A stretch of DNA of 64,000 nt, from NCBI GenBank assembly GCA_964448085.1, contig CAYUUX010000001.1, positions 22,465-86,464 on the forward strand, in the 5' to 3' direction. The notes under the pieces are model-generated. The model ran no database searches. It had not been told where the DNA came from and saw only the letters and a program-made list of their open reading frames with translations. The position numbers and the translations under genes are program-made. Of this stretch, positions 1 to 52,922 are shown one piece after another. Position 1 is the first letter of the stretch; each line of letters opens with the position of its first letter. The stretch is from an uncultured Gammaproteobacteria bacterium (GTDB lineage Bacteria; Patescibacteriota; Microgenomatia; UBA10105; UBA927).

Positions 1-857
1 CTCAGTGCTATAAACATCGCGGTAAAAAACAAAATATGAGCCATATTATGGCCTGCGATACGCACGATTTTCTTTTTGGATACCACAATACCATCCAAGA
101 TAAGCACGCCTACCAATAGCCCCATGAACAAAAATGCCACATCTCGTGTCAAGGCAGGAATGTTAATCAACGGATGTAATACCACCTGGGAAAATGCATT
201 GAACAAAAATGTAGCAACAGGTGTTACCTGCAGCTTGGGAACAATCACAGGTTCCGCTTCTGCCACTCTCGTTTCAACCTGTTCACCGAGTTGTTCGGGG
301 ACACCCTCGTTTTTCTCAACAACCGCAGCCTGCTCCAATACGACGGTCTTCACCGGCTCCGCGGCAACTACCGTTTCACCGGCACCAAACATCTGCACAA
401 CCAGCGTTGTTTCTTCGCCACCCAAAACGCCGTTTACAATGGCAAATCCTACATCCCGGTATCCCGGTTTCACAATATTTTCCTTGTGCGTTGGAGAGGC
501 CATCCATGCGTCAATCACTCCTTGGCTTGTGGCAAAATTTTTCGCTAGATTTTCCCCTGCTACGGTATATTTGTATCCCGCAGCTTGAATAAAATTCCAT
601 GGCGTTTTTCCCTGAGGGCTGTTATGCGCCCAATAGTTATTCGCAAACATATCTTGCGCCTTTGCGGCAGCTGCCTGAGAAAGTGTCATATTGAGCGTCA
701 ACGGACCAATGCCCGCGGCAGAACGCTGTGCATTCGTTCCGGACAACAGCTGATCAACCCTGATGTCGGTTGCGTATCCCAAGACGTTCGGAAATTCTCT
801 GTGAAGTATTCTGACACCGAAATTAAATATTGCGAAGATCAGAATGTAGCAAAGCAT
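1..857 (-). CDS. CAP/SCP (PR-1-like) domain protein, N-terminal signal/TM; 3' end runs off window start (partial)
   Basis: My own minus-strand translation (not in ORF track because no stop inside window): MLCYILIFAIFNFG...LLSGTNAQRSAAGIGPLTLNMTLSQAAAAKAQDMFANNYWAHNSPQGKTPWNFIQAAGYKYTVAGENLAKNFATSQGVIDAWMASPTHKENIVKPGYRDVGFAIVNG = CAP-domain signature blocks (GENLA..., SP.HKENIL, Y..VG.A); hydrophobic C-terminal segments near window edge. The plus-strand 76..588 ORF is its low-complexity antisense. Confidence 0.6.
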   Translation of the reverse strand, partial: MLCYILIFAIFNFGVRILHREFPNVLGYATDIRVDQLLSGTNAQRSAAGIGPLTLNMTLSQAAAAKAQDMFANNYWAHNSPQGKTPWNFIQAAGYKYTVAGENLAKNFATSQGVIDAWMASPTHKENIVKPGYRDVGFAIVNGVLGGEETTLVVQMFGAGETVVAAEPVKTVVLEQAAVVEKNEGVPEQLGEQVETRVAEAEPVIVPKLQVTPVATFLFNAFSQVVLHPLINIPALTRDVAFLFMGLLVGVLILDGIVVSKKKIVRIAGHNMAHILFFTAMFIAL

Positions 858-983
858 CGAATCCACATGCAATGCGCGGGCGTGATGATTATTTGAATGA
901 TGCGGCAAGAAAAAATGCCGAAGAAATCTCTGCATAATTCCATGATACCGATTCAGAAAGAAAAATTCCAGGAGCCTCTCGCG

Positions 984-1900: not shown

Positions 1901-2339
1901 ATGACACCTCAATATTCCGCCCATTTTCACCTTTCCCCTGTGATAGGCGTATATCCGTCCTCTCTAAAGGCACGTTGTCTCCTAAACGCTCTGCCCATTC
2001 TATTATGACTACGGATCCGGATTCAGACATCATTTCGTGTAACGCTAATGCGTTCATCTCACGCACGTCTTTTACGCGATAAAGATCGATATGGTACAAA
2101 AAACGGTTTTGTTTCGGAATTTGATAACGTCGCACAATAATGAAGGTTGGGGAGAGAAGGCGAGAGGTGATACCCAAACCTTCTGCAATTCCCTGAACGA
2201 GTGTTGTCTTCCCTGCCCCCAGGTTTCCATATATACAGAGAACCTGTGCTCCTCGCTCCCCTCTTCCTGCAGATAACGTTAAAGAATCTGCAATTTTTTT
2301 GCCCACGTTTTTAGTCTCTTGGGCGCTTGTGGTAACCAT
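1890..2339 (-). CDS. tsaE: tRNA t6A biosynthesis ATPase TsaE (YjeE)
   Basis: P-loop LCIYGNLGAGKTTLVQGIAEGLG followed by SPTFIIVRRY...YHIDLYRV, the characteristic TsaE layout; about 150 aa. Confidence 0.8.
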   Translation of the reverse strand: MVTTSAQETKNVGKKIADSLTLSAGRGERGAQVLCIYGNLGAGKTTLVQGIAEGLGITSRLLSPTFIIVRRYQIPKQNRFLYHIDLYRVKDVREMNALALHEMMSESGSVVIIEWAERLGDNVPLERTDIRLSQGKGENGRNIEVSYGK

Positions 2340-5590: not shown

Positions 5591-6347
5591 GGTCTTTTTT
5601 CTCCTCCTTCTTCTCTCCCTTTTTCTCATCTTTATGATCATGCTTGCGTTCATGATGGAAACGTTTTGCAAAATGGTATTTCCCTTTTTTCTCATCGCTC
5701 ACAATCGCGCCGTCTTTTATTGTTATTGTCCGCTTCTTTTCCTGATCAACTAACAATGCGTTATGGGTAACAACGATTACGGTTGTACCCATCTTATTCA
5801 CTTCTTTTAATATCTCCAGAATATCCTCACTGGTCTCTGGATCCAAATTACCCGTTGGCTCATCGGCAAGCAGAATCTTCGGTCCTGCAACGATGGAGCG
5901 TGCGAGCGCTATCCGTTGTTTTTCTCCCTGGGAAAGCTGCACAGGAAACAGCGATGCCTTATCTGATAATTCCACTAAACCTAACGCATCCATCACTCCT
6001 TTTTCAATATCTTCCTCCGTTTTTCCCAGAACCTCCATTCCTACGGCGATATTCTCGAACACCGTTCTATCCATAAGTAATTTCAGATCCTGAAACACCA
6101 TGCCGACTTTTCTTCGAAGAAGGTATACCGAAGACGGCGGGATCTGCGCAACATCATCATCATCCACATAGACCTGTCCTTCTGATGGAAGCAACTCCCG
6201 TGTGATGAGTTTTAGCAACGTGGTTTTTCCTGCACCTGTTGGACCGATAACAAAAACGAATTCGCCGTCAGGTATTTCAACGGTTATGTCGGAGAGTGCA
6301 TTTTGCCGCTCCCCAAATGCCTTTGATACATGGTCGAATCGAATCAT
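5574..6347 (-). CDS. ftsE: cell division ATP-binding protein FtsE, with unusual K/E/H-rich C-terminal tail
   Basis: Walker A GPTGAGKTT, ABC signature LSQGEKQRIALARS, Walker B ILLADEPTGNLD, H-loop VVTHN; C-terminus ...HHERKHDHKDEKKGEKKEEKKDHEKDE. Confidence 0.9.
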   Translation of the reverse strand: MIRFDHVSKAFGERQNALSDITVEIPDGEFVFVIGPTGAGKTTLLKLITRELLPSEGQVYVDDDDVAQIPPSSVYLLRRKVGMVFQDLKLLMDRTVFENIAVGMEVLGKTEEDIEKGVMDALGLVELSDKASLFPVQLSQGEKQRIALARSIVAGPKILLADEPTGNLDPETSEDILEILKEVNKMGTTVIVVTHNALLVDQEKKRTITIKDGAIVSDEKKGKYHFAKRFHHERKHDHKDEKKGEKKEEKKDHEKDE

Positions 6348-6349
6348 TC

Positions 6350-6811
6350 CTATTGAAGCACCTCAATGCGCCCCACATCCATAAGCCACGGACACGTTCC
6401 CGCATCCATAGTTTTACTTGTTACGGTAACTTTCTTTCCGACAAATTCATCGAGATCTAACACTGAGGAAACGAGACATGCAGTCTGTGAGGGTCCGCCC
6501 TCACGGACAAGTTTATGCGTACCTTCCCCACTGATTCCCCCCTTTTCTATAGTACCCGTTGCGCTATCGGTAAACGTCTTGGTGTCAGCACTTCCGAATA
6601 CATTTTTCCCAGAAGCTGTTGGTCCGGCGGGTGCTGCCGCGCCAGTGGATAATTTCTTTCCACCGGAAATAACATATCCCGTAAGCACACCAAGGGCGAC
6701 CATTAAGACAAATACACCGCCGACAATGAGCTTTACTGATTTTGACTGACCTGTCTTATCAGGCATTTGTATTGAATTTGCTTGCTTTGCTGTAGGCTTT
6801 AGGTTTTCCAT
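6350..6811 (-). CDS. small membrane-anchored hypothetical protein (first gene of ftsEX operon)
   Basis: Single TM LIVGGVFVLMVALGVLTGYVI, then Gly/Ala/Thr-rich region; 3 nt from ftsE. Confidence 0.45.
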   Translation of the reverse strand: MENLKPTAKQANSIQMPDKTGQSKSVKLIVGGVFVLMVALGVLTGYVISGGKKLSTGAAAPAGPTASGKNVFGSADTKTFTDSATGTIEKGGISGEGTHKLVREGGPSQTACLVSSVLDLDEFVGKKVTVTSKTMDAGTCPWLMDVGRIEVLQ

Positions 6812-10466: not shown

Positions 10467-11465
10467 TTAGTTACAATTTGCAGCAGATGTATTTGCTGAT
10501 GCTTCCCCTGTTTCCGAAAAAGATGCGGCAACATCATCCGTTGACAATGCCGTACCGCAATATCCAGCTTTTGTGGATGAGGCACAACACAAAACTTCTT
10601 TCAATGCGTTTGGCGTGCGTCCCCCAAAGTCAAATTCCGAAACGACCTGACTCTCATTTACCAACAACGTTGGCGAGCTTCCGATATCATATTTCGCCAT
10701 CAGATCGAAATCCTTTTGTGCATACGTATTTCCTCTCTTTGCATCTGCCATACATGCATTCACCGATGCGACATTTACTCCTGTTTGCGTCAAACATTCT
10801 GCACTTTTCCCCTGCGCTTTCATATAACAGGCAACATATGGCCAATAAAGATTCTTCTGTTCCTCACGAATACAAATCTGCCGAAGATTTTCCTGCGCCT
10901 CAGCATCGCCGTGCATGGAAGTTATTTTCCCACCCTCGATGGCTCCGATGTATTTAACTTCAAATGCATCTTTGAGCGCTGGTTGTTCTGTAATTGCCTT
11001 GTTCATCACGCGTTGCATCTGCAAACCGAACGGACAATCGGCAACGACAAATGCAGTCATCTTTGGCGTTGCAGATTTATTGACGTCATCACAGGTTAAC
11101 TTTGCTTGCGGTTCTGCTGCAGCTTGGCTATCTGCCTTTTGCAGTTCGCTCACTTTCGTGCCGCTTGCAAAGAAAATCTTCCCGTCTTTGGTTATATACG
11201 AGGTGTACTTGTTTACTTGTCCGGCTGAATCAAGCGTAAGGTCAAAGGAATATATCCCGCTTTCTTCTTTCAGATTTTCAACTGATTGAATCTTCGTTGC
11301 GTTCCCCGCAAGAACCTGTACGACATTGGGAATTGTTTTTGTCTTCATTTCCACAAGCGCATCTTTGCTTCGTTTCAGGACAAGTCCACCAACTAAAAGT
11401 GCTATTATTACTAAAGGAACGAGAAAAGAGAACAGTTTTTTACGTTTCAGGGTTAGTTTTTTCAT
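10467..11465 (-). CDS. membrane-anchored DsbA-like thioredoxin-fold protein with degenerate CPFG active site (putative)
   Basis: N-terminal TM LFSFLVPLVIIALLVGGLVL; FVVADCPFGLQ at the position of a DsbA CxxC motif but with Gly replacing the second Cys; C-terminal SSPTLLVNE resembles the DsbA cis-Pro PTF.ING block. Confidence 0.45.
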   Translation of the reverse strand: MKKLTLKRKKLFSFLVPLVIIALLVGGLVLKRSKDALVEMKTKTIPNVVQVLAGNATKIQSVENLKEESGIYSFDLTLDSAGQVNKYTSYITKDGKIFFASGTKVSELQKADSQAAAEPQAKLTCDDVNKSATPKMTAFVVADCPFGLQMQRVMNKAITEQPALKDAFEVKYIGAIEGGKITSMHGDAEAQENLRQICIREEQKNLYWPYVACYMKAQGKSAECLTQTGVNVASVNACMADAKRGNTYAQKDFDLMAKYDIGSSPTLLVNESQVVSEFDFGGRTPNALKEVLCCASSTKAGYCGTALSTDDVAASFSETGEASANTSAANCN

Positions 11466-11522
11466 AGTTTATTATTTGTATAGGAACTTACCCGCTTTGT
11501 CAACCCGATAAAATATAGTATA

Positions 11523-12572
11523 ATGACGTTTTCCAAAAAAGCTATGAAATCCATATTGAAAAACAAAAAAATCTGGATATTTCTTGCAATCATCATTGTT
11601 GTCGGGATAGGCATTTTTTCTGCAACACGCGGGAAAAATACCAACAAGAAATCTTCCACTTATACTGTTCGGAAACACACTATACGAGAGACCTTATCCA
11701 TTGCCGGTGTCATCGATGCGCAGGAAAAAGTGACGCTTCGATTTCAAACGTCCGGCATGCTTTCCTGGGTCGGCGTCAAAGAGGGTGATACTGTATACCC
11801 CTATCAAGCGATTGCTTCCCTTGATCAAATGGAACTTACTAAAACACTGCAAAAATATCTCAACTCGTACGAAAGCGAGAGGAGAGATTTCGATCAGACG
11901 ACTGACGAATATCGACAACCCGCACAAGGATACTGGGGGTTAACTTGGGATCAACGAAGGGAATTGGATCGCGCGCTTGAAAAAGCACAGTATGACCTCA
12001 ACAGCAGCGTACTTGATGTAGAATTGAAATCCATCGCATTAAAATATGCTACGCTTGTTACCCCCATCGGTGGGATCGTTACCAAAGTCACCAGTCCATT
12101 TGCGGGCATCAACGTTACACCTTCACAAGCAGAGTTTGAAGTCGTCAACCCCACAACGCTGTATCTCTCTGTGCTCCCCGATCAAAATGAAGTGAGCAAA
12201 ATCACATCGAGCATGTCTGCAACAATCGTGTTTGATCCGTTCCCCGAAGCAACCGTATCCGGTGCTGTCCAATCCATTGCGTTTGCACCAAAATCCGGTG
12301 AAAGCTCAACGGTATATGAAGTAAAACTGTCGTTACCCACAACCAATTCATACAGAATAGGAATGACGGCAGATGCTACATTTGTCATTTCTGAACGACA
12401 AGATGTCATAGCCATACCATTCTCAATGCTCAAAACGGATAACGGAAAACCCTATGTTTTTCGAAAAATCGGGAACACAAAAGAAAAAACTTCGGTAACC
12501 ATCGGCCTTGAAGGTGATGACTTCATAGAAATAACAAGTGGACTTGCTGAGGGCGATATCCTCTATGATTAA
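11523..12572 (+). CDS. HlyD/MacA-family periplasmic adaptor (membrane fusion) protein
   Basis: N-terminal TM, coiled-coil hairpin region, beta-barrel/lipoyl-like segments typical of MFP; followed by MacB-like ATPase and permease. True start may be Met8 (11544) because a TATAAT box overlaps the 11523 ATG. Confidence 0.7.
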   Translation: MTFSKKAMKSILKNKKIWIFLAIIIVVGIGIFSATRGKNTNKKSSTYTVRKHTIRETLSIAGVIDAQEKVTLRFQTSGMLSWVGVKEGDTVYPYQAIASLDQMELTKTLQKYLNSYESERRDFDQTTDEYRQPAQGYWGLTWDQRRELDRALEKAQYDLNSSVLDVELKSIALKYATLVTPIGGIVTKVTSPFAGINVTPSQAEFEVVNPTTLYLSVLPDQNEVSKITSSMSATIVFDPFPEATVSGAVQSIAFAPKSGESSTVYEVKLSLPTTNSYRIGMTADATFVISERQDVIAIPFSMLKTDNGKPYVFRKIGNTKEKTSVTIGLEGDDFIEITSGLAEGDILYD

Positions 12573-22183: not shown

Positions 22184-22219
22184 ACAGACGAATTCTTTTG
22201 CTCTTTTGAAGCTAAATTT

Positions 22220-22293
22220 GCCCCCATCGTCTAGCGGCCTAGGACGGCGCCTTCTCAAGGCGCAGACCGCCGGTTCGAATCCGGCTGGGGGTA
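22220..22293 (+). tRNA. tRNA-Glu (anticodon CTC)
   Basis: Manual cloverleaf: acceptor GCCCCCA/TGGGGGT (G1.U72), U8, D-arm GTCT-AGCGGCCTA-GGAC, anticodon arm GCGCC-TTCTCAA-GGCGC (U33, anticodon CUC), T-arm GCCGG-TTCGAAT-CCGGC, discriminator A; no encoded CCA. Confidence 0.85.
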
Positions 22294-22380
22294 CCCAATT
22301 CCGACTTGTTAATATTCAAATAGTTTGAATTTTTTCTCTTCAGCTACTTTATTGCTATATATCCCTCCATTTGATATACT

Positions 22381-23802
22381 ATGGGCTATTATCATTCTAT
22401 GAATCATGAGTCTTTTCCCCTTTATAGCCAGTCAGACAGGGAACCAATCTTACCCACAGAATCACTATTATTACCGGCTACTAGAAAAATTGCCCAAATG
22501 TTCCATTCTATATATAACCAAAATGTCCCATCGGGCATTCAAGAACGATTTAATGAATTGAAGAACAATAGCACTCAACACATTTCTATAGATCAATCCA
22601 TCGATGGAACAAGCTTTTCTTCAAACGATCCGAATTCAAGAGATGTTGTTGGATATATGGATCCAGAAACAGATATTATTCATCTCCCAAACGCATCAAG
22701 AGAATCAACGGTAATACATGAAATGTTCCATTTTCTTTCCTCCAACCCATCAACGAAACATTCTGGATTTCATTACCATAACGTTCTCTGGACAAAATAT
22801 TTAAACGAAGCATTTACTGAATTTCTAACCTTTAATACCATACGTCGTGATGTTCATGGCGTATTGAAGCCTGATGCTAATTCAGACAATGCACAAAGAG
22901 GAATAGAAAAATACTTAACTCGTGGGTATGATCCCTATGAAGAGAAAACAGAAAGCTATAGAACTGCCTATGATACCTTGCTTGATACTGTTACCTATAT
23001 CCCATCAGACAAAAAAAAGGATGTTATGATCCGGTTCATTGATAGCTATTTTTCACAAAATCTTGACGGGGTTATTGACGCGCTTTCGCTATTTACATAC
23101 ACCGATTACACTGATTTTGACAAACGAAAAGGGCCACCAATCAAACGTTTAGTATCAGAATTCCTTCATGAAAGTTTTGAAAATATCGCATTGCATAAGA
23201 TTGAAACATGGAAAGATCATTTAGACCATCTTCCATTAACAACGAATTTATTTTCTACCACAAAAGAGCGATCCGAATATGCAGTTATCCAAAAAATGGT
23301 GCGGCTGATAACGCAACAAAGCAAGGATACTCTCGTCGATGTTCATATATTGTTTTCAGACAATATCAAACAAAGAAAAGGTATACAAACGGATATGTAT
23401 TCTAATAACTTATCATCATTTATCTTGATTAGTACTGATTTATTAGATGCAAGCAAGTACTTAATTCTTTCCAACACTGGGGTCTTCTGGGAAGCGTATC
23501 GATTGCTTTTATTAGAACAGGCAGCAACGTTAGCCCAACACAGCATCATATTTAATAAAAAAGACGTACAGAATGCAATGTCGTCAGTTATAAGCCGGAT
23601 TGATCCGAATCAGCAAAAAACCGTTGATGTACTTCGACAACTTCTGCAAAACGACCCTGGTAATCCTCGTCATATGGATATGATACGTAGTATTCTTGGC
23701 ATTGACGATATCTTCTCAATGGTTATCGATGATGGTATTGAGAAGATATCTTCCATACGACAAGTCGACACCGTACTCAGACGTTATAAAAACAAACATT
23801 AA
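22381..23802 (+). CDS. orphan HExxH-motif protein (putative zinc metallopeptidase-like), no signal peptide
   Basis: 473 aa; only recognisable feature is STVIHEMFHFLSS (HExxH, about nt 22717-22731); rest helical, no match to families I can name; AT-rich and first gene after tRNA-Glu. Start ambiguous (22381 or Met7 at 22399; TATACT box at 22375-22380). Confidence 0.5.
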   Translation: MGYYHSMNHESFPLYSQSDREPILPTESLLLPATRKIAQMFHSIYNQNVPSGIQERFNELKNNSTQHISIDQSIDGTSFSSNDPNSRDVVGYMDPETDIIHLPNASRESTVIHEMFHFLSSNPSTKHSGFHYHNVLWTKYLNEAFTEFLTFNTIRRDVHGVLKPDANSDNAQRGIEKYLTRGYDPYEEKTESYRTAYDTLLDTVTYIPSDKKKDVMIRFIDSYFSQNLDGVIDALSLFTYTDYTDFDKRKGPPIKRLVSEFLHESFENIALHKIETWKDHLDHLPLTTNLFSTTKERSEYAVIQKMVRLITQQSKDTLVDVHILFSDNIKQRKGIQTDMYSNNLSSFILISTDLLDASKYLILSNTGVFWEAYRLLLLEQAATLAQHSIIFNKKDVQNAMSSVISRIDPNQQKTVDVLRQLLQNDPGNPRHMDMIRSILGIDDIFSMVIDDGIEKISSIRQVDTVLRRYKNKH

Positions 23803-45967: not shown

Positions 45968-46996
45968 ATGGGTTTGGAACAAGAACCAAATGCAGGGTTT
46001 TTTGTGGGCAATTTTTTCCATGTTCTTCCTGTGGATGAACTGGAAGAGTATAACCATTCTAATGTTCTGTACTGGGAATCACAGCACGCCGAACCAAAAG
46101 TAATGGTTGAACGATTTTTGGAACAAGATGCAGGCTTTTTCCCCAACCGAATGGTTATTCCACGAATTATTTTATCTCCCCAGGAAACAGATAGAATACA
46201 ATCGGCACTGCTCCAAGGCATACAAGATCACTATTCCATGGGTGTACGATCCGTTGCCAATAAATCGCTTGAATCCGGAGACACCTTACCGTGGATTATG
46301 GAACTGGATTCCTCCCATAAAGTTGATGTGTTCCTACACGATACGCTTCCATCATGGAATAAACAGGCTGATGAAGAGGGATACGAACTCACGAAATTAA
46401 TTTTAATGAAAAACCCTCCTGAACTTGGTACGATGCAGTCAAACCCTGATCAGTTTGTCGCACGATTGCAATGGATCAATCCGGAACAAACGGAAAGGGA
46501 TCTTCCTCATACACTCATGAGAATAGAAATGGCCGTTGGTACCAATAAGCTTCGCGAACTGGATAGAAGGATGGAAAAGCCGGGGAACGGATCGCTTATC
46601 CGATATGAAGGACTATATTCCTTAACCGACGTGTTTTCCCACGCAACGATTGACATTGGCAACACCTATGTAAACCCAGCATGTATGGAAAAAGCACGAT
46701 CTAAAATGTCATTTGTAACTGATCAGGCACTCACATTAAAGAGTGCTGATAAAATTGACCCATATGTTGCCGCTACCATGCGTTCTTTTTTTTCGTTCTT
46801 ACAAGAAAACATAAACGATCCAAATATCCAGTTATTGAAACGGTTCGACTTTCTTGCATCCATTGGGTTAACTGATATTGAATTTCAAGGATTTAATAAC
46901 CACAAATGGGGAGTATATATTTATGGACTTCGTGGTATGTACGATGAAACACGCCTGAATATTCTCAAAGCTGAATGCTTTAAATCAAGGAGCTAA
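45968..46996 (+). CDS. orphan cytoplasmic hypothetical protein (342 aa)
   Basis: No TM or signal, no motif I can assign; lone plus-strand gene between minus-strand blocks. Confidence 0.5.
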   Translation: MGLEQEPNAGFFVGNFFHVLPVDELEEYNHSNVLYWESQHAEPKVMVERFLEQDAGFFPNRMVIPRIILSPQETDRIQSALLQGIQDHYSMGVRSVANKSLESGDTLPWIMELDSSHKVDVFLHDTLPSWNKQADEEGYELTKLILMKNPPELGTMQSNPDQFVARLQWINPEQTERDLPHTLMRIEMAVGTNKLRELDRRMEKPGNGSLIRYEGLYSLTDVFSHATIDIGNTYVNPACMEKARSKMSFVTDQALTLKSADKIDPYVAATMRSFFSFLQENINDPNIQLLKRFDFLASIGLTDIEFQGFNNHKWGVYIYGLRGMYDETRLNILKAECFKSRS

Positions 46997-47537: not shown

Positions 47538-47840
47538 TCATTTTTTCCAAATGCTCCTATCCAGATTCACTCGATTCCCTGTAAATACTACTCCTTCATT
47601 GCGAAGCATTTTTTCTTTCCGTCTGATACCACCGGAAGCTGTAAATCCTGTCAGCTTTCCGTCGAATGCAACAACCCTATGACAGGGAACACGAGGTGCA
47701 AACGGATTTCTTTTCATGAACATGCCCACAGCACGCGAGGCGCGTGCATTACCGGCAAGCCGAGCAAGTTGTCCGTAGGTAGCGACTTTGCCTTTGGGGA
47801 TTTGTGCGGCGATATGATAAACGCGATCCTTAAACTTCAT
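47538..47840 (-). CDS. methylated-DNA--protein-cysteine methyltransferase-like, C-terminal (DNA-binding/active-site) domain only
   Basis: HTH plus active site motif ATYGQLARLAG…RAVGMFMKRNPFAPRVPCHRVV (PCHRV signature); 100 aa, no N-terminal domain. Confidence 0.75.
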   Translation of the reverse strand: MKFKDRVYHIAAQIPKGKVATYGQLARLAGNARASRAVGMFMKRNPFAPRVPCHRVVAFDGKLTGFTASGGIRRKEKMLRNEGVVFTGNRVNLDRSIWKK

Positions 47841-47842
47841 TG

Positions 47843-48586
47843 TTATTCTGCACCAAACAATTTAGACAGGACCATGATACCGATTCCTACCAAAAACAGT
47901 CCGAATGATGCGATTGATTTCTTTAGACTTTGTTCTTTCCGAATTTCCGGCATAAGATCTGATGCTGCGATATAAATAAATCCACCAGCAGCAAACGGCA
48001 GTAGATATGTTGTGAGATAGGATGAAACGAACGATGCATAATAACCAACGATCCCTCCGGCAACCGCAATAAGTGCGACGGCAAAATTAGACAGCAAAGC
48101 CTTTTTTTTGTCAAAACCGGAATATAATAACACCCCGAAATCACCAATTTCCTGTGGAATCTCATGGAGCGCAACAGTGAGTGTCGTAATAATACCTAGC
48201 CGCACATCTGTGATGAACGTTGCTGCGATAATCAAGCCGTCAATAAAATTATGGATAGCGTCTCCGATCAAATTCATTGATCCAAACGTATGCACATCAC
48301 AATGTCCTTTATGACAGTGGCGCCAATGGAGCACCTTTTCTATAAGAAAAAATGAACAAAACGACAGCAAAACAATTCCATTCACCGTCATAGTATCCGT
48401 TTCTGCAACGGCCTCCGGTAATAAGTGCAAAAATGCTCCCCCCATAAGCGCCCCGGCGGAAAGTGCAACGAGGAGCATCAACACGCGTGAAAGCCTTACT
48501 TCCTTGATTGCTAAGGTAAACACACCAATTAACCCACCGGTGCTTATAATGAATGTTGCGATAATGATATATAAAAGCGTATTCAT
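47843..48586 (-). CDS. ZIP-family divalent metal transporter (ZupT-like)
   Basis: 8 TM; HNFxDG and HEIPQEIGDF metal-binding motifs; His-rich loop HWRHCHKGHCDVH. Confidence 0.85.
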   Translation of the reverse strand: MNTLLYIIIATFIISTGGLIGVFTLAIKEVRLSRVLMLLVALSAGALMGGAFLHLLPEAVAETDTMTVNGIVLLSFCSFFLIEKVLHWRHCHKGHCDVHTFGSMNLIGDAIHNFIDGLIIAATFITDVRLGIITTLTVALHEIPQEIGDFGVLLYSGFDKKKALLSNFAVALIAVAGGIVGYYASFVSSYLTTYLLPFAAGGFIYIAASDLMPEIRKEQSLKKSIASFGLFLVGIGIMVLSKLFGAE

Positions 48587-48658
48587 AGAACGATCATACG
48601 AATTGTTTACTACGGTGCTATTATAATCTTAACGATAGACTTTTGCTTTAGTAGAATT

Positions 48659-48922
48659 TCACAGTTGCTCTGTGTCACCAAAGAAATCATCAATTAAGGT
48701 TTCGTCTAGTAAGTCCTCATCTCCTAATTTTGCTATTAGGCTATCTCTTAAAAATCGTCTTGTCCGTTGGTGAGGTTGTCCGTTTATCAAATCTTCATCA
48801 CTACAATCTAAACCATAATTTTTAAGTCCATTTGAAGACCAGGAGGAAATAACTTTATGATCTATGACACTTCTATCTCTCTCTAAAATTAGTTGATGGT
48901 GTAATTCTAATGTCATATTCAC
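48659..48922 (-). CDS. small acidic hypothetical protein in AT-rich islet
   Basis: 87 aa, acidic C-terminus (…GDEDLLDETLIDDFFGDTEQL); AT-rich like the neighbouring HAD gene. Confidence 0.35.
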   Translation of the reverse strand: MNMTLELHHQLILERDRSVIDHKVISSWSSNGLKNYGLDCSDEDLINGQPHQRTRRFLRDSLIAKLGDEDLLDETLIDDFFGDTEQL

Positions 48923-48998
48923 CTGCTATATTTTGTCTGTTACTTCGTTCTAGGACCAATGTATCCTTATAGCTGAATACTAACTTTTGGTTATAGTC

Positions 48999-49595
48999 TT
49001 ACTCTGCTGGCATCACGGTCTGGAACCCTTTGATCCCATAACCGTTCATAAACTTATTCAATAGATTTTCATTATTCTCTTCTTTGTTCCACCAAATGGT
49101 TTGCATTCCTAATTTGTCTGCTGCTTCTATATTTTCTAAAGAATCATCCATAAACAAACATTCTTCGGGCTTTGTGTTTAGTCTTTCGCAAGCTAATAAG
49201 TAAATCTTAGGGTCGGGTTTTTTAATACCTTCCACAGCAGAGTTTATATAAATATCAAAAATACTGAAGTCGAATTTTTCTTTCCAATATTTTAGGGCTA
49301 CTGCATTTCCGTTATTAATGACTGCTATTTTATATTTGCTTTTCAATGCGGGGAGCAATTCCCATAAATCATCAAATTTCTCATACTTTTCTGGAATCAA
49401 ACAAACAGCCCGTTTAATTTTTTCATCGCTCAATTTAAGCTTTTCTTTTATATCGCTAATTAATTTAATGTCATCTAAATGGTTGAACAAGCATTCTATA
49501 TTCTGAGTATTGATTTCGTCCGAAGTTTTTGGGGTGTAACCATCCCTCTTAAAAACCAGTACCCCAACCATATCAAAAAGAATAGCTTTAATCAT
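48999..49595 (-). CDS. HAD-superfamily hydrolase (subfamily IA-like)
   Basis: Motif I ILFDMVGVL (DxDxV), motif II/III region, motif IV FMDDSLENIEAADKLG; about 33% GC. Start at MIKAILFDM; the upstream 13 codons in the ORF track overlap the tRNA. Confidence 0.75.
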   Translation of the reverse strand: MIKAILFDMVGVLVFKRDGYTPKTSDEINTQNIECLFNHLDDIKLISDIKEKLKLSDEKIKRAVCLIPEKYEKFDDLWELLPALKSKYKIAVINNGNAVALKYWKEKFDFSIFDIYINSAVEGIKKPDPKIYLLACERLNTKPEECLFMDDSLENIEAADKLGMQTIWWNKEENNENLLNKFMNGYGIKGFQTVMPAE

Positions 49596-49602
49596 AGTCG
49601 AG

Positions 49603-49673
49603 CTGCGGGGCTTGGATTCGGACCAAGATAACATCCTCCAGAGGGATGCGTACTACCGTTATACGACCCCGCA
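49603..49673 (-). tRNA. tRNA-Gln-like (anticodon CTG) with atypical T-loop (C55)
   Basis: Manual fold on minus strand: acceptor UGCGGGG/CCCCGCA (U1-A72), discriminator G73 (both GlnRS-type identity features), U8, D-arm GUAU-AACGGUA-GUAC, anticodon arm CAUCC-CUCUGGA-GGAUG (U33, CUG), 4-nt variable loop, T-arm CUUGG-UCCGAAU-CCAAG (C instead of U at position 55). Plus-strand reading rejected (C at position 33). Confidence 0.5.
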
Positions 49674-49710
49674 AATTATTACGCTTTCTACTCCATTGTA
49701 TTATTTATGG

Positions 49711-50532
49711 CTATTCTGGTAAGCAAATTATACCACCCGAACGTGCCATAAGTAAGCCATCTTTCAGAAGACCTTGCACTAATAGCTTTACTTTTTTTTG
49801 ATCTATTTCATATTGCTTTTCCATTACGCTAATGAGTGCTTTTTCCTGAAATGACTGCTCTCTTACTAAGTCAAGTATACGTCCACGAAAATATCTGTTC
49901 GTTTTCTTAAAGGGAAGTATGTATGACTTTTTTATATTAGTTGATCGCAACTCTTTCTCGTGCAATGCACCATAATCCATAAGCGCCTGATGCCACTCCC
50001 ATGATTTTCCCAAAGGAAGCAGTCTTTGTGCTATATCTTCGATATTCTTTTCATCTTGTAAAACATCGTCAAAGAAAAAATGCGTAATAATCTTTCTAAT
50101 ATTGGTGTCTACCATCGCTAAATCTTTTTTATATGCAAATACCAGTACGGCTCGCGCTGTGTATTTGCCTATTCCTGGGAGTTTCTGCAAAGTCTTCTCG
50201 TCTTGTGGAAAAATACCGTTATAGTCGGATGTAATAAAATTGGCTGTTTTATGTAGATATAACGCTCGTCTGTTGTATCCCATTCCTTTCCAAATGCGCA
50301 ATACGTCACTCAATCGCGCCCGCGCTAACGATTTGATGGTTGGGTATTTTGCAATAAATTCCTTGTACTTGGGTAATCCGCGAACAACTTGCGTCTGCTG
50401 CAGCAGAATCTCCGAAAGCAAAATCTTGTATGGATCATGTGTTTTTCGCCACGGCAAATCGCGTTTATGCACTTTCCACCAACGGAAAATATACGTATGA
50501 AAACGGATAATATTTCTGCGCGTTAGTTTCAT
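49711..50532 (-). CDS. HhH-GPD superfamily DNA glycosylase (MutY/Nth-like core lacking the [4Fe-4S] Cys cluster) with C-terminal extension
   Basis: LPGIGKYTARAVLVFAY (HhH) followed by the catalytic Asp region (AMVDTNIRKI); no CxxxxxxCxxCxxxxxC. Confidence 0.65.
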   Translation of the reverse strand: MKLTRRNIIRFHTYIFRWWKVHKRDLPWRKTHDPYKILLSEILLQQTQVVRGLPKYKEFIAKYPTIKSLARARLSDVLRIWKGMGYNRRALYLHKTANFITSDYNGIFPQDEKTLQKLPGIGKYTARAVLVFAYKKDLAMVDTNIRKIITHFFFDDVLQDEKNIEDIAQRLLPLGKSWEWHQALMDYGALHEKELRSTNIKKSYILPFKKTNRYFRGRILDLVREQSFQEKALISVMEKQYEIDQKKVKLLVQGLLKDGLLMARSGGIICLPE

Positions 50533-50635
50533 TGTTGCCTTCTCCCCTCTTGCTCGCCAAGAGGGGAATGCGAAAAACATAACATCTCTCAGCGTATTCC
50601 TGCAGGAGACTGACGTTTATTGTACAATACTTCCT

Positions 50636-51530: not shown

Positions 51531-52922
51531 TTATTTCAACCGTACCAACGTTTCCTCTTTCCCCAGTATTTCCAGCGACTCCAAAAGCGGCGGTCCAACT
51601 GTTTTTCCGGTAACAGCGACCCGGAGCTCCATAAAGATATCTCGCGCTTTTACGCCGTCTTTTTCCGCCTGAGCACGAAGTGCTTTTTCCATTACATCAT
51701 GTTCCCATGCGGACACCGTTTCGAGTGCTGTACGTACGGTTGTGAGATATTTAGCGTTTATCGGACGTTCCAACGTTACGGGTCGTACAAAAAAGAAGTC
51801 TGCAAGAGATTCAAATTCACCAAGCGTCTTCATGCGTTCCTTTACCAAAGGGAGTATCCGTTTCATGAGATCATCGCTCTCTTTTGGTACAGTTGCGTCG
51901 AATGCGCATATCCGATTGATAAGTTCTTTTTCGCCCATCTTTCGTATATATTCACCATTCATCCAACGAAGTTTTTCCTGGTCAAAAATTGGCGCGGTTG
52001 TCTGCACATCCTTCATGTCAAATTTTTCAATCATCTCATCCACGTTAAATAACTCTTTCCCGGGATATGTCCATGCCATTGTTGCCATGTAATTTTTCAT
52101 TGCCTCCGGCAAATATCCCTTTGCTCGATAATCAGCAACCCACACCGGATTTTTTCTTTTGGATAATTTGCTCCGATCCGGATTTCTCAGAACCGATACA
52201 TGCGCAATTGCGGGAATTTCCCACCCAAAAAATTGGTACAACAAGATGTGTTTCGGCGTTGAAGATATCCATTCTTCACCTCGAATGATGTGGGAAATGT
52301 TCATTATGTGATCGTCAACAACCACACCTAAATGGTAGGTGGGATATCCATCCGATTTTATCAATACTTGGTCATCAATCAGTTTATTTTCAAATGATAT
52401 GTCGCCGCGAATAAGGTCATGAAACATCGTCGTACCTTCTTCCGGAACATTTAATCGTATGACATGTTTCTCCCCTTTTTGAATTCGCGCCTGTGCCTCA
52501 TCGCGAGCAATTGCCTTACAGTGGCCGTCATACATCGGCGGCTTATGTTCCGTTTCCTGAGACTGACGCATTTTTTCAAGGCGATCGGGCGTACAAAAAC
52601 AGTAATATGCATGTCCCTTTTCAACGAGTTCTTCTGCGTATTTTTTGTACATATCCAACCGTTCCGATTGCCGGTATGGTGCAAATTGACCTCCAACATC
52701 CGGTCCTTCATCATGCGGAATACCAAGCCACTCCAGTGATGCCAATATTCGTTCTTCCGAACCCTCTACAAGTCGCGTCCTGTCCGTATCTTCCACGCGA
52801 ACGATAAATTCACCACCGTGTTTTTTTGCAAACACGTAATTGATCAACGCAGTGTATGCGTTGCCGATATGAAGATCCTGACCTGTGGGAGATGGTGCGA
52901 TACGGGTACGAATTTTCTCCAT
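51531..52922 (-). CDS. gltX: glutamate--tRNA ligase (possibly non-discriminating)
   Basis: Class I HIGH (HIGNA) and KMSKS-like (KLSKR) motifs, about 465 aa. Confidence 0.9.
   Translation of the reverse strand: MEKIRTRIAPSPTGQDLHIGNAYTALINYVFAKKHGGEFIVRVEDTDRTRLVEGSEERILASLEWLGIPHDEGPDVGGQFAPYRQSERLDMYKKYAEELVEKGHAYYCFCTPDRLEKMRQSQETEHKPPMYDGHCKAIARDEAQARIQKGEKHVIRLNVPEEGTTMFHDLIRGDISFENKLIDDQVLIKSDGYPTYHLGVVVDDHIMNISHIIRGEEWISSTPKHILLYQFFGWEIPAIAHVSVLRNPDRSKLSKRKNPVWVADYRAKGYLPEAMKNYMATMAWTYPGKELFNVDEMIEKFDMKDVQTTAPIFDQEKLRWMNGEYIRKMGEKELINRICAFDATVPKESDDLMKRILPLVKERMKTLGEFESLADFFFVRPVTLERPINAKYLTTVRTALETVSAWEHDVMEKALRAQAEKDGVKARDIFMELRVAVTGKTVGPPLLESLEILGKEETLVRLK

Follow-up and report, generated by a model that had tools for sequence, protein, structure and literature searches.

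The T loop of tRNAs carries a near-universal uridine at position 55 (U55), the target of TruB, which as pseudouridine 55 is the partner of G18 and anchors the elbow between the D loop and the T loop. Non-canonical T loops are known from the cell-wall tRNA-Gly of Staphylococcus, from eukaryotic initiator tRNA (A54, A60) and from the tRNA-Pyl of Desulfitobacterium. In D. hafniense tRNA-Pyl, the base numbered C55 makes an unusual contact between the D loop and the T loop (PMC7609411). The locus described here is a tRNA-Gln(CUG) gene with C55, together with the two small protein genes that follow it, in a stretch of 64,000 nucleotides (nt) from contig CAYUUX010000001.1 (assembly GCA_964448085.1); the whole stretch is called the window, and compared loci from other genomes and metagenomes carry L-numbers. 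The reading we favor, and consider probable, is that a functional C55 tRNA-Gln(CUG) stands at a conserved position and that its 3′ side is a hot-spot of recombination or insertion, a slot whose cargo varies by lineage. C55 as a common natural allele is the more interesting result and gene exchange at the tRNA the smaller point.

Two tRNAs were found in the window by ARAGORN, one of them tRNA-Gln(ctg) at 49602-49673 on the minus strand. The tRNA family of Rfam, RF00005, matches 49603-49673 on the same strand from end to end (model positions 1-71 of 71) with 54.5 bits against a gathering score of 29, and a covariance model specific to the clade (model R1) scores the gene at 99.9 bits. The first-pass annotation, made from the letters of the window alone, had drawn a minus-strand cloverleaf with anticodon CUG at exactly these positions; both tRNA finders agree with it, and the Rfam score places the locus above threshold, not among pseudogenes. 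The features concerned are:

49603 to 49673, minus strand: tRNA-Gln(CUG) gene (ARAGORN, Rfam RF00005, model R1, compensatory changes)
49621, minus strand: C55, the T-loop base that is normally U or pseudouridine 55 (direct reading, Rfam alignment)
49695 to 49722, minus strand: promoter-like site TTACCA-16 nt-TACAAT, about 22 nt upstream of the tRNA (weak consensus match)

The tRNA reads UGCGGGG-UC-GUAU-AACGGUA-GUAC-G-CAUCC-CUCUGGA-GGAUG-UUAU-CUUGG-UCCGAAU-CCAAG-CCCCGCA-G, that is, an acceptor stem UGCGGGG/CCCCGCA with U1-A72 and discriminator G73, a D arm GUAU-AACGGUA-GUAC whose 7-nt loop holds G18 and G19, an anticodon loop CUCUGGA and a T arm CUUGG-UCCGAAU-CCAAG. The CCA end is not encoded. 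The marks of a tRNA-Gln that were examined (anticodon CUG or UUG, U1-A72, G73) are present, the latter two read directly from the sequence as the earlier annotation had stated, and U8, A14, G18, G19, U33, G53, U54, C56, A58 and C61 are all in place. What the gene lacks is the U55 expected of the tRNA family. Direct reading of the minus strand puts T54 at 49622, C55 at 49621 and C56 at 49620, confirming the T loop UCCGAAU that had been noticed earlier, and the Rfam alignment shows GGU-C-CGAAUCC where the consensus has GGUUCGAAUCC. We treat this as a natural variant and not as a ground for exclusion from the family. Promoter-like sites around the locus are no commoner than in shuffles, and the one at 49695-49722 is a hint only. 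The glutamyl-tRNA synthetase gene gltX was confirmed at 51531-52922, and no gatCAB or glnS gene was seen among the open reading frames (ORFs) scanned, namely those of 46.9-53 kb and the large ORFs of the window.

C55 is not confined to this gene. One genome per species was scanned for the anticodon loop and T-loop pattern CTCTGGA-N12-13-GGTCCGAATCC, and at least 119 loci match it; in at least 102 species genomes the pattern lies inside a tRNA-Gln(CUG) called by ARAGORN. Going by record titles, the matches listed include about 60 Planctomycetota (Pirellulales, Phycisphaerae, Sedimentisphaerales) and about 30 Patescibacteria from many classes, besides three Spirochaetia and three archaea. C55 is also met on viral contigs, in tRNA-Gln(UUG) (19 matches); for tRNA-Gln(CUG) three C55 matches stand against at least 120 with U55. 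No report of a natural C55 in a bacterial tRNA-Gln was found in the literature, where U55C appears only as an engineered mutant; coverage of that search is incomplete and novelty unproven.

Within the clade of the window we sampled 80 metagenome loci that encode relatives of the adjacent HhH-GPD protein and five genome loci. A block of S11 peptidase, hyp352, GluRS, Era and HhH-GPD is kept in most of the 80 metagenome loci, and tRNA-Gln(CUG) lies directly downstream of HhH-GPD in about 40 of them. The pooled set (80 metagenome loci, five genome loci and the window) contains 45 tRNA-Gln(CUG) genes, split almost evenly between C55 (22, including the window's own and 21 others) and U55 (23). Three pairs of genes differ at base 55 alone (window and L330, L300 and L325, L295 and L335), both states are found in all four acceptor-stem types of the clade, and no other base of the T loop covaries with position 55. 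On a neighbor-joining tree of HhH-GPD, which has long branches and no support values, the window falls among lineages with C55 only, and at least six changes between U and C are required. The HhH-GPD proteins of this C55-retaining clade are only 50-62% identical to that of the window. Among 26 aligned tRNA-Gln genes of the clade, all 546 pair cells are standard and 12 of the 21 pairs show a compensatory change. The non-Gln tRNAs of the same loci carry U55 in 17 of 17 cases. Taken from these comparisons, C55 is a heritable and recurrent natural allele that has been gained or reverted repeatedly.

Since there are many C55 genes, their cloverleaves are perfect and show compensatory changes, and they are passed on across the clade, C55 is no mark of a pseudogene, and the view of the gene as a functional tRNA is well supported by comparative evidence. 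The first-pass annotation had offered a functional variant tRNA as its alternative to an acquired islet, and this part of it has held up well. The window tRNA would be expected to fold and to decode CAG normally, with an altered contact where G18 would otherwise meet pseudouridine 55 and with pseudouridylation at position 55 made impossible; it is presumably expressed and charged. A decaying or non-functional tRNA, disabled by C55 and replaced in decoding by another tRNA-Gln, is what the near-universality of U55 might suggest, and one relative, L080, does hold one copy of each state within 1.3 kb. We consider decay very unlikely, as it sits badly with the full-length match (54.5 bits in Rfam, 99.9 bits with the clade model) and the presence of all other conserved bases, with intact helices and compensatory changes across C55 genes, and with the retention of C55 both over the protein distances given above and in the species genomes of the scan.

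The two copies in L080, a Patescibacteria metagenome-assembled genome (MAG), lie at 819-890 (minus strand) and 2053-2126 (plus strand), inverted around a Fic-domain gene. The U55 copy is 95.8% identical to the window tRNA. GreA in the same locus starts 10 nt past the discriminator of the C55 copy (7 nt past its encoded CCA).

Another explanation takes C55 to be non-neutral: the RNA would undergo C-to-U editing at this base, or the two states would be a selected switch in how the elbow is read, with GatCAB or GluRS, RNase P, the ribosome or a phage or toxin nuclease as candidate readers, which would explain the recurrent toggle. The repeated changes on otherwise identical tRNAs (at least six on the HhH-GPD tree), the restriction of the toggle to tRNA-Gln among the sampled tRNAs with no other T-loop base changing in step, and the clustering of Fic and nuclease genes at the locus in relatives would all fit. 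Near-neutral drift at one tolerated site fits too, however, few other isotypes were sampled, and no paper on such editing or selection was found. We therefore judge this explanation improbable. A wider version, in which the toggle is selected through editing or tuning of the elbow and the tRNA-Gln locus, with its Fic, GIY-YIG and recombinase neighbors, is an arena of conflict in Patescibacteria, is a speculation to which we give a small chance. C55 is thus seen in one isotype, tRNA-Gln, of at least 102 species over several phyla, and within one clade the base flips between U and C on otherwise identical backbones. If not already catalogued, this would amount to a natural experiment on the role of position 55, and it matters for tRNA gene finders and for pseudogene calls in MAGs.

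The second part of our reading concerns the 3′ side of the tRNA, where the window carries the following features:

49711 to 50580, minus strand: HhH-GPD (MutY/Nth-like) glycosylase, closing the conserved block found ahead of tRNA-Gln in relatives
49596 to 49602, minus strand: 7-nt spacer CTCGACT from G73 to the HAD start codon, with no terminator; homology with relatives ends here
48999 to 49595, minus strand: HAD-IA family hydrolase, 198 residues, guanine-plus-cytosine (GC) content 33.3% (Pfam, NCBIfam, homologues)
48917 to 48998, minus strand: 82-nt spacer between HAD and the small ORF, containing GGTCCTAGAAC at 48947-48957
48659 to 48916, minus strand: acidic ORF of 85 residues, predicted all-helical, GC at third codon positions (GC3) 23%, very rare family (homologue comparison)
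48587 to 48658, minus strand: 72-nt spacer before ZIP; homology with L084 resumes at the ZIP start codon, 48586
47843 to 48586, minus strand: ZIP metal transporter, the conserved far flank of the variable interval (Pfam)
47538 to 47840: MGMT-type gene, after ZIP

Homology by blastn runs through GluRS, Era, HhH-GPD and the tRNA, and it ends at 49601/49602 in L084, L063, L127, L059 and L080. In L084 it resumes exactly at the start of ZIP (48586), and the interval between holds 2.3 kb of low-GC sequence with a 104-residue ORF, an SAM methyltransferase, a 61-residue ORF and an ArsR regulator. Other relatives have other contents in this place: in L281 the tRNA and MGMT are 196 nt apart, in L296 unrelated genes fill 2.9 kb ahead of ZIP, and L297 has yet another gene set. 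ZIP is 76-78% identical in L084 and L296, and MGMT 62-69% in L281, L297, L306 and L308. Neither HAD nor the small ORF is present in any of the 85 related loci (the first-pass annotation had named their presence in the same place as grounds against an islet), and about 45 of these relatives have tRNA-Gln at the syntenic site. The 1.0 kb from the tRNA 3′ end to ZIP may thus be read as the local version of a variable slot whose cargo differs by lineage, filled here by HAD and the 85-residue orphan protein and now fixed, with neither a mobility gene nor an attachment-site (att) scar.

Relatives also show how such a slot could be filled. In L318 (7540-10830), a C55 tRNA-Gln has, 94 nt from its 3′ end, a large serine recombinase (domains Resolvase, Recombinase and Zn-ribbon). 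Next come S-adenosylmethionine decarboxylase and branched-chain polyamine synthase, at a GC of about 30.5%; this looks like an intact element integrated at the same tRNA. Small GIY-YIG genes adjoin tRNA-Gln in L063, L300, L322 and L131. Copies of the tRNA-Gln 3′ end, 14 to 34 nt long, occur 15 to 150 nt downstream of it in L280/L281, L059, L298, L356 and L329, copies of the 5′ end occur upstream in L300, L301, L333 and others, and the clade model detects pseudo-tRNA-Gln copies in L131, L329, L301 and L356. The relatives hence point to candidate mechanisms by which the window's cargo may have been gained: integrase-type elements, GIY-YIG nuclease genes and tRNA-anchored recombination. One further locus, L140 (441-650), holds a second copy of AATCCTGTTGGGCTC, the 3′ end of a tRNA-Lys(UUU), about 110 nt downstream of it and immediately ahead of a tRNA-Gln(UUG), with a GIY-YIG-like ORF upstream; this looks like another duplication of a tRNA end.

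The HAD family gives a case of movement. Homologues of the window's HAD number more than 170 at 56-82% identity, come from Patescibacteria wherever the source gives a name, are in some cases fused to NUDIX domains, and were found in at least five unrelated gene contexts. The closest one (81% identity in protein, 83% in DNA) stands after tRNA-Gln(CUG) in L131, L132 and L133, with a 91-residue ORF between the tRNA and HAD. L131 (2951-3161) and L132 (272-343) are 99.6% identical from tRNA position 17 onward, through the 91-residue ORF, HAD and GNAT, and unrelated before that point. Another, intact tRNA-Gln and a GIY-YIG gene lie 84 nt upstream in L131, with a truncated tRNA copy of the L132 type retained behind them. 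Here a HAD-bearing segment has recently changed context, with a breakpoint inside tRNA-Gln.

The window was searched for the traces that an integration would leave, and here the evidence is negative. The absence of an integrase, remarked on in the first-pass annotation, was borne out: no integrase or recombinase was found in 46.9-53 kb or among the large ORFs of the window. A direct repeat of the tRNA 3′ half, suggested there as a possible att remnant, did not materialize. A 20-mer of the tRNA with up to three mismatches has no att copy in the window, exact 12-mers of the tRNA have none within 8 kb on either side (a repeat finder was also negative), the best local Smith-Waterman alignment is within chance (258 of 300 shuffles at least as good), and model R1 with filters off finds no tRNA remnant below E = 10 in the window.

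One candidate for such a remnant, GGTCCTAGAAC (48947-48957), resembles a T arm; it was rejected as evidence and is kept as a lead only. It is found again 19 nt ahead of the HAD homologue in L131-L133, and local tests gave p = 0.02-0.03. Copies with one mismatch occur across loci at about the chance rate (about 10 expected, an estimate), model R1 is blind to it, and locus-wide alignments give p > 0.07.

The lack of an integrase and of an att copy in the window, together with several further observations, weighs against an acquired slot and speaks for an alternative in which there is no islet at all: HAD and the small ORF would be old and vertically inherited in a fluid gene order, relatives would have lost or moved them, and the GC dip would reflect proteins rich in Lys, Asn and Ile. 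Gene order is poorly conserved in Patescibacteria, and a break beside a tRNA may need no special mechanism. No sample of the species departs from the arrangement, which all contigs with its small ORF or ZIP show, and exact look-ups of the species' HhH-GPD, small ORF and ZIP proteins did not find an empty tRNA-ZIP site. In the distant locus L004, a tRNA-Gln (CUG, U55, CCA encoded; 1854-1927), a HAD gene of 77% identity (6001-6576) and a 38%-identical homologue of window ORF 45968-46996 (at 11417-12268) lie within 10 kb, a linkage that fits an old association with losses elsewhere. A tRNA-Gln likewise precedes HAD in L131-L133 and the small-ORF homologue in L140.

Composition belongs to the same side of the argument. 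The GC of the window is 43.2%, and its 73 ORFs have a mean of 43.1% with a standard deviation of 2.9. The two lowest values of the 73 belong to HAD (33.3%) and the small ORF (34.5%), about three standard deviations below the mean, while their flanks have 42.2% (ZIP), 47.2% (MGMT), 39.5% (HhH-GPD), 43.9% (Era) and 44.4% (GluRS). The low GC described earlier for the pair thus stands, and the "about 45%" given for the flanking genes was slightly generous on the HhH-GPD side. The codon analysis that was to accompany it gave a mixed answer. Low GC in HAD comes mainly from codon positions 1 and 2 (25% at position 2, and 35% at position 3 against a window mean of 41%), its synonymous codon usage is ordinary (z = 1.0 against resampling, rank 23 of 73), and each of six HAD homologues from other genomes has a GC 3 to 9 points under that of its own locus. 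Codon usage in the small ORF is slightly odd (z = 2.2, with its low GC3). The GC dip is mostly protein composition, and low GC is a property of the HAD family, which is always below its host. Because HAD codon usage is ordinary and the low GC is family-wide, composition alone is no proof of foreign origin.

Vertical inheritance would nevertheless require many independent losses, given that none of the roughly 45 relatives with a syntenic tRNA has HAD or the small ORF. It does not account for homology boundaries that coincide to the base with the tRNA 3′ end and, on the far side, with the start of ZIP, nor for the recent change of context in L131/L132 with its breakpoint in tRNA-Gln and the dispersal of HAD homologues over unrelated surroundings. 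We regard it as a serious but minority possibility, of roughly one chance in four by our estimate. What remains of the islet at the tRNA 3′ end proposed in the first-pass annotation is therefore the base-exact break in synteny, the different cargo in relatives and the scars and mobile genes found there; the att repeat and the integrase are missing, and the GC argument is weak. On the preferred reading, HAD and the small ORF would have been gained here rather than lost elsewhere, and the tRNA gene, with breakpoints at the level of single bases, would be a site of gene exchange in genomes as small and supposedly static as those of Patescibacteria.

The HAD gene begins with an ATG at 49595, 7 nt past G73, as had been noted before, and the identification as a HAD-IA-like hydrolase is secure by profile: TIGR01509 with 68.9 bits (cut-off 29.4), PF00702 with 74.9 bits (cut-off 26.4) and also PF13419. 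Scores are below the cut-offs of all equivalog models. The signatures of the fold are present (motif I with its nucleophile Asp, motif III with Lys, motif IV with DD), and they are shared with the named subfamilies that come closest, the epoxide-hydrolase N-terminal-like phosphatases (TIGR02247) and PH1655 (PDB 2hoq). Unlike HAD-IA phosphatases, which show DxDx(T/V) with a general acid/base at D+2, the protein has F-D-M-V-G-V at motif I, so that D+2 is Val (V10), invariant in 15 homologues, in place of the catalytic Asp, and it has N-N-G-N at motif II. It belongs to the superfamily, and its chemistry may differ from that of a standard phosphatase. The 7-nt spacer is too short for a Shine-Dalgarno sequence, and the tRNA transcript probably serves as the HAD message too, with a leader of 7 nt, which presumes co-transcription of the two. 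Protein genes start within 12 nt past the tRNA-Gln discriminator in 7 of 38 related loci (the window with 7 nt, L321, L300, L350, L080, L315 and L140). Processing of the tRNA may yield mRNAs with very short leaders in this clade.

The small acidic ORF that the first-pass annotation placed after HAD is retained with one correction, the start being ATG 48916 and not GTG 48922. Compared with a 68%-identical homologue, it shows 20, 15 and 41 differences at the three codon positions, and 25 of 51 differing codons are synonymous; because the differences are concentrated at the third position, the ORF can be taken to be a real coding gene on comparative grounds. Its family is very rare, with only four other clusters among 1.8 billion representatives, and it has no match in Pfam, PHROG or NCBIfam. 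For one homologue the context is available (L140), where it starts 12 nt after tRNA-Gln(UUG) and has no HAD beside it. Two long matches in the representative search, P0124 and P0127, were rejected as translations of repeats and not relatives. An AlphaFold2 model of the 85-residue protein, built from a five-sequence alignment, is too weak for a fold search (predicted local distance difference test 62, predicted template-modelling score 0.32).

The rest of the window consists of ordinary core genes, for example SecA, RF, RuvB, SerRS, Lon, SUF, SecDF and RecJ, and HhH-GPD, Era and GluRS lie upstream of the tRNA. Among named relatives, the nearest are MAGs of Gottesmanbacteria and Microgenomates, whose GluRS is up to 80.6% identical. 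The host would accordingly be a Patescibacterium of the Microgenomates/Gottesmanbacteria type, in which the tRNA comes after S11 peptidase, GluRS, Era and HhH-GPD. Five loci (L023, L059, L084, L088 and L103) come from MAGs labeled 'uncultured Gammaproteobacteria' and have a tRNA-Gln of Patescibacteria type, some with the GluRS, Era and HhH-GPD block; from these genes the labels look wrong. Logan short-read contigs of the same organism (L001, L134 and L135) break inside the tRNA gene, at window positions 49622, 49651 and 49639, as expected if co-occurring relatives share the short words (k-mers) of the tRNA and differ downstream. Elsewhere in the window, a tRNA-Glu(CUC) with canonical U55 (22219-22297, plus strand) is followed after 84 nt by a low-GC gene (22381-23802, plus strand; 473 residues, GC 36.4%, third lowest of the 73 ORFs) with atypical codon usage (z = 2.7). 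It has no Pfam match and no credible NCBIfam match, and it may be a second acquired gene beside a tRNA.

How does the locus compare with described systems? Genomic islands and integrative elements at the 3′ ends of tRNA and tmRNA genes are elements of tyrosine or serine recombinases whose att repeats copy the 3′ part of the tRNA. They share with the locus a cargo whose first base follows the tRNA 3′ end directly and which relatives lack in this place. Other cargo, a serine recombinase (L318) and duplicated 3′ and 5′ fragments of the tRNA, as such islands would have them, are seen in the relatives and not in the window, where neither a recombinase nor a direct repeat accompanies an insert of 1.0 kb with two genes, the larger of ordinary codon usage. 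The insert would be at best a stripped remnant of an island or a product of homologous recombination anchored in the tRNA. With bacterial tRNA-Gln of the E. coli type (the GlnRS identity set) and of the transamidation type (GatCAB recognition of U1-A72 and a small D loop), the window tRNA shares U1-A72, G2-C71, G73, G10, the anticodon CUG and a 7-nt D loop without extra bases. It departs from them in having C3-G70 instead of G3-C70, G37-A38 instead of A37-U38 and C55 instead of U55, and in a CCA end that is not encoded. With the tRNA-Gly of Staphylococcus, the eukaryotic initiator and tRNA-Pyl it has in common a departure from the T-pseudouridine-C motif in an otherwise normal cloverleaf. Those tRNAs combine several changes with a special function, whereas here a single toggle between U and C is found in an ordinary elongator tRNA, with both states present among close relatives.

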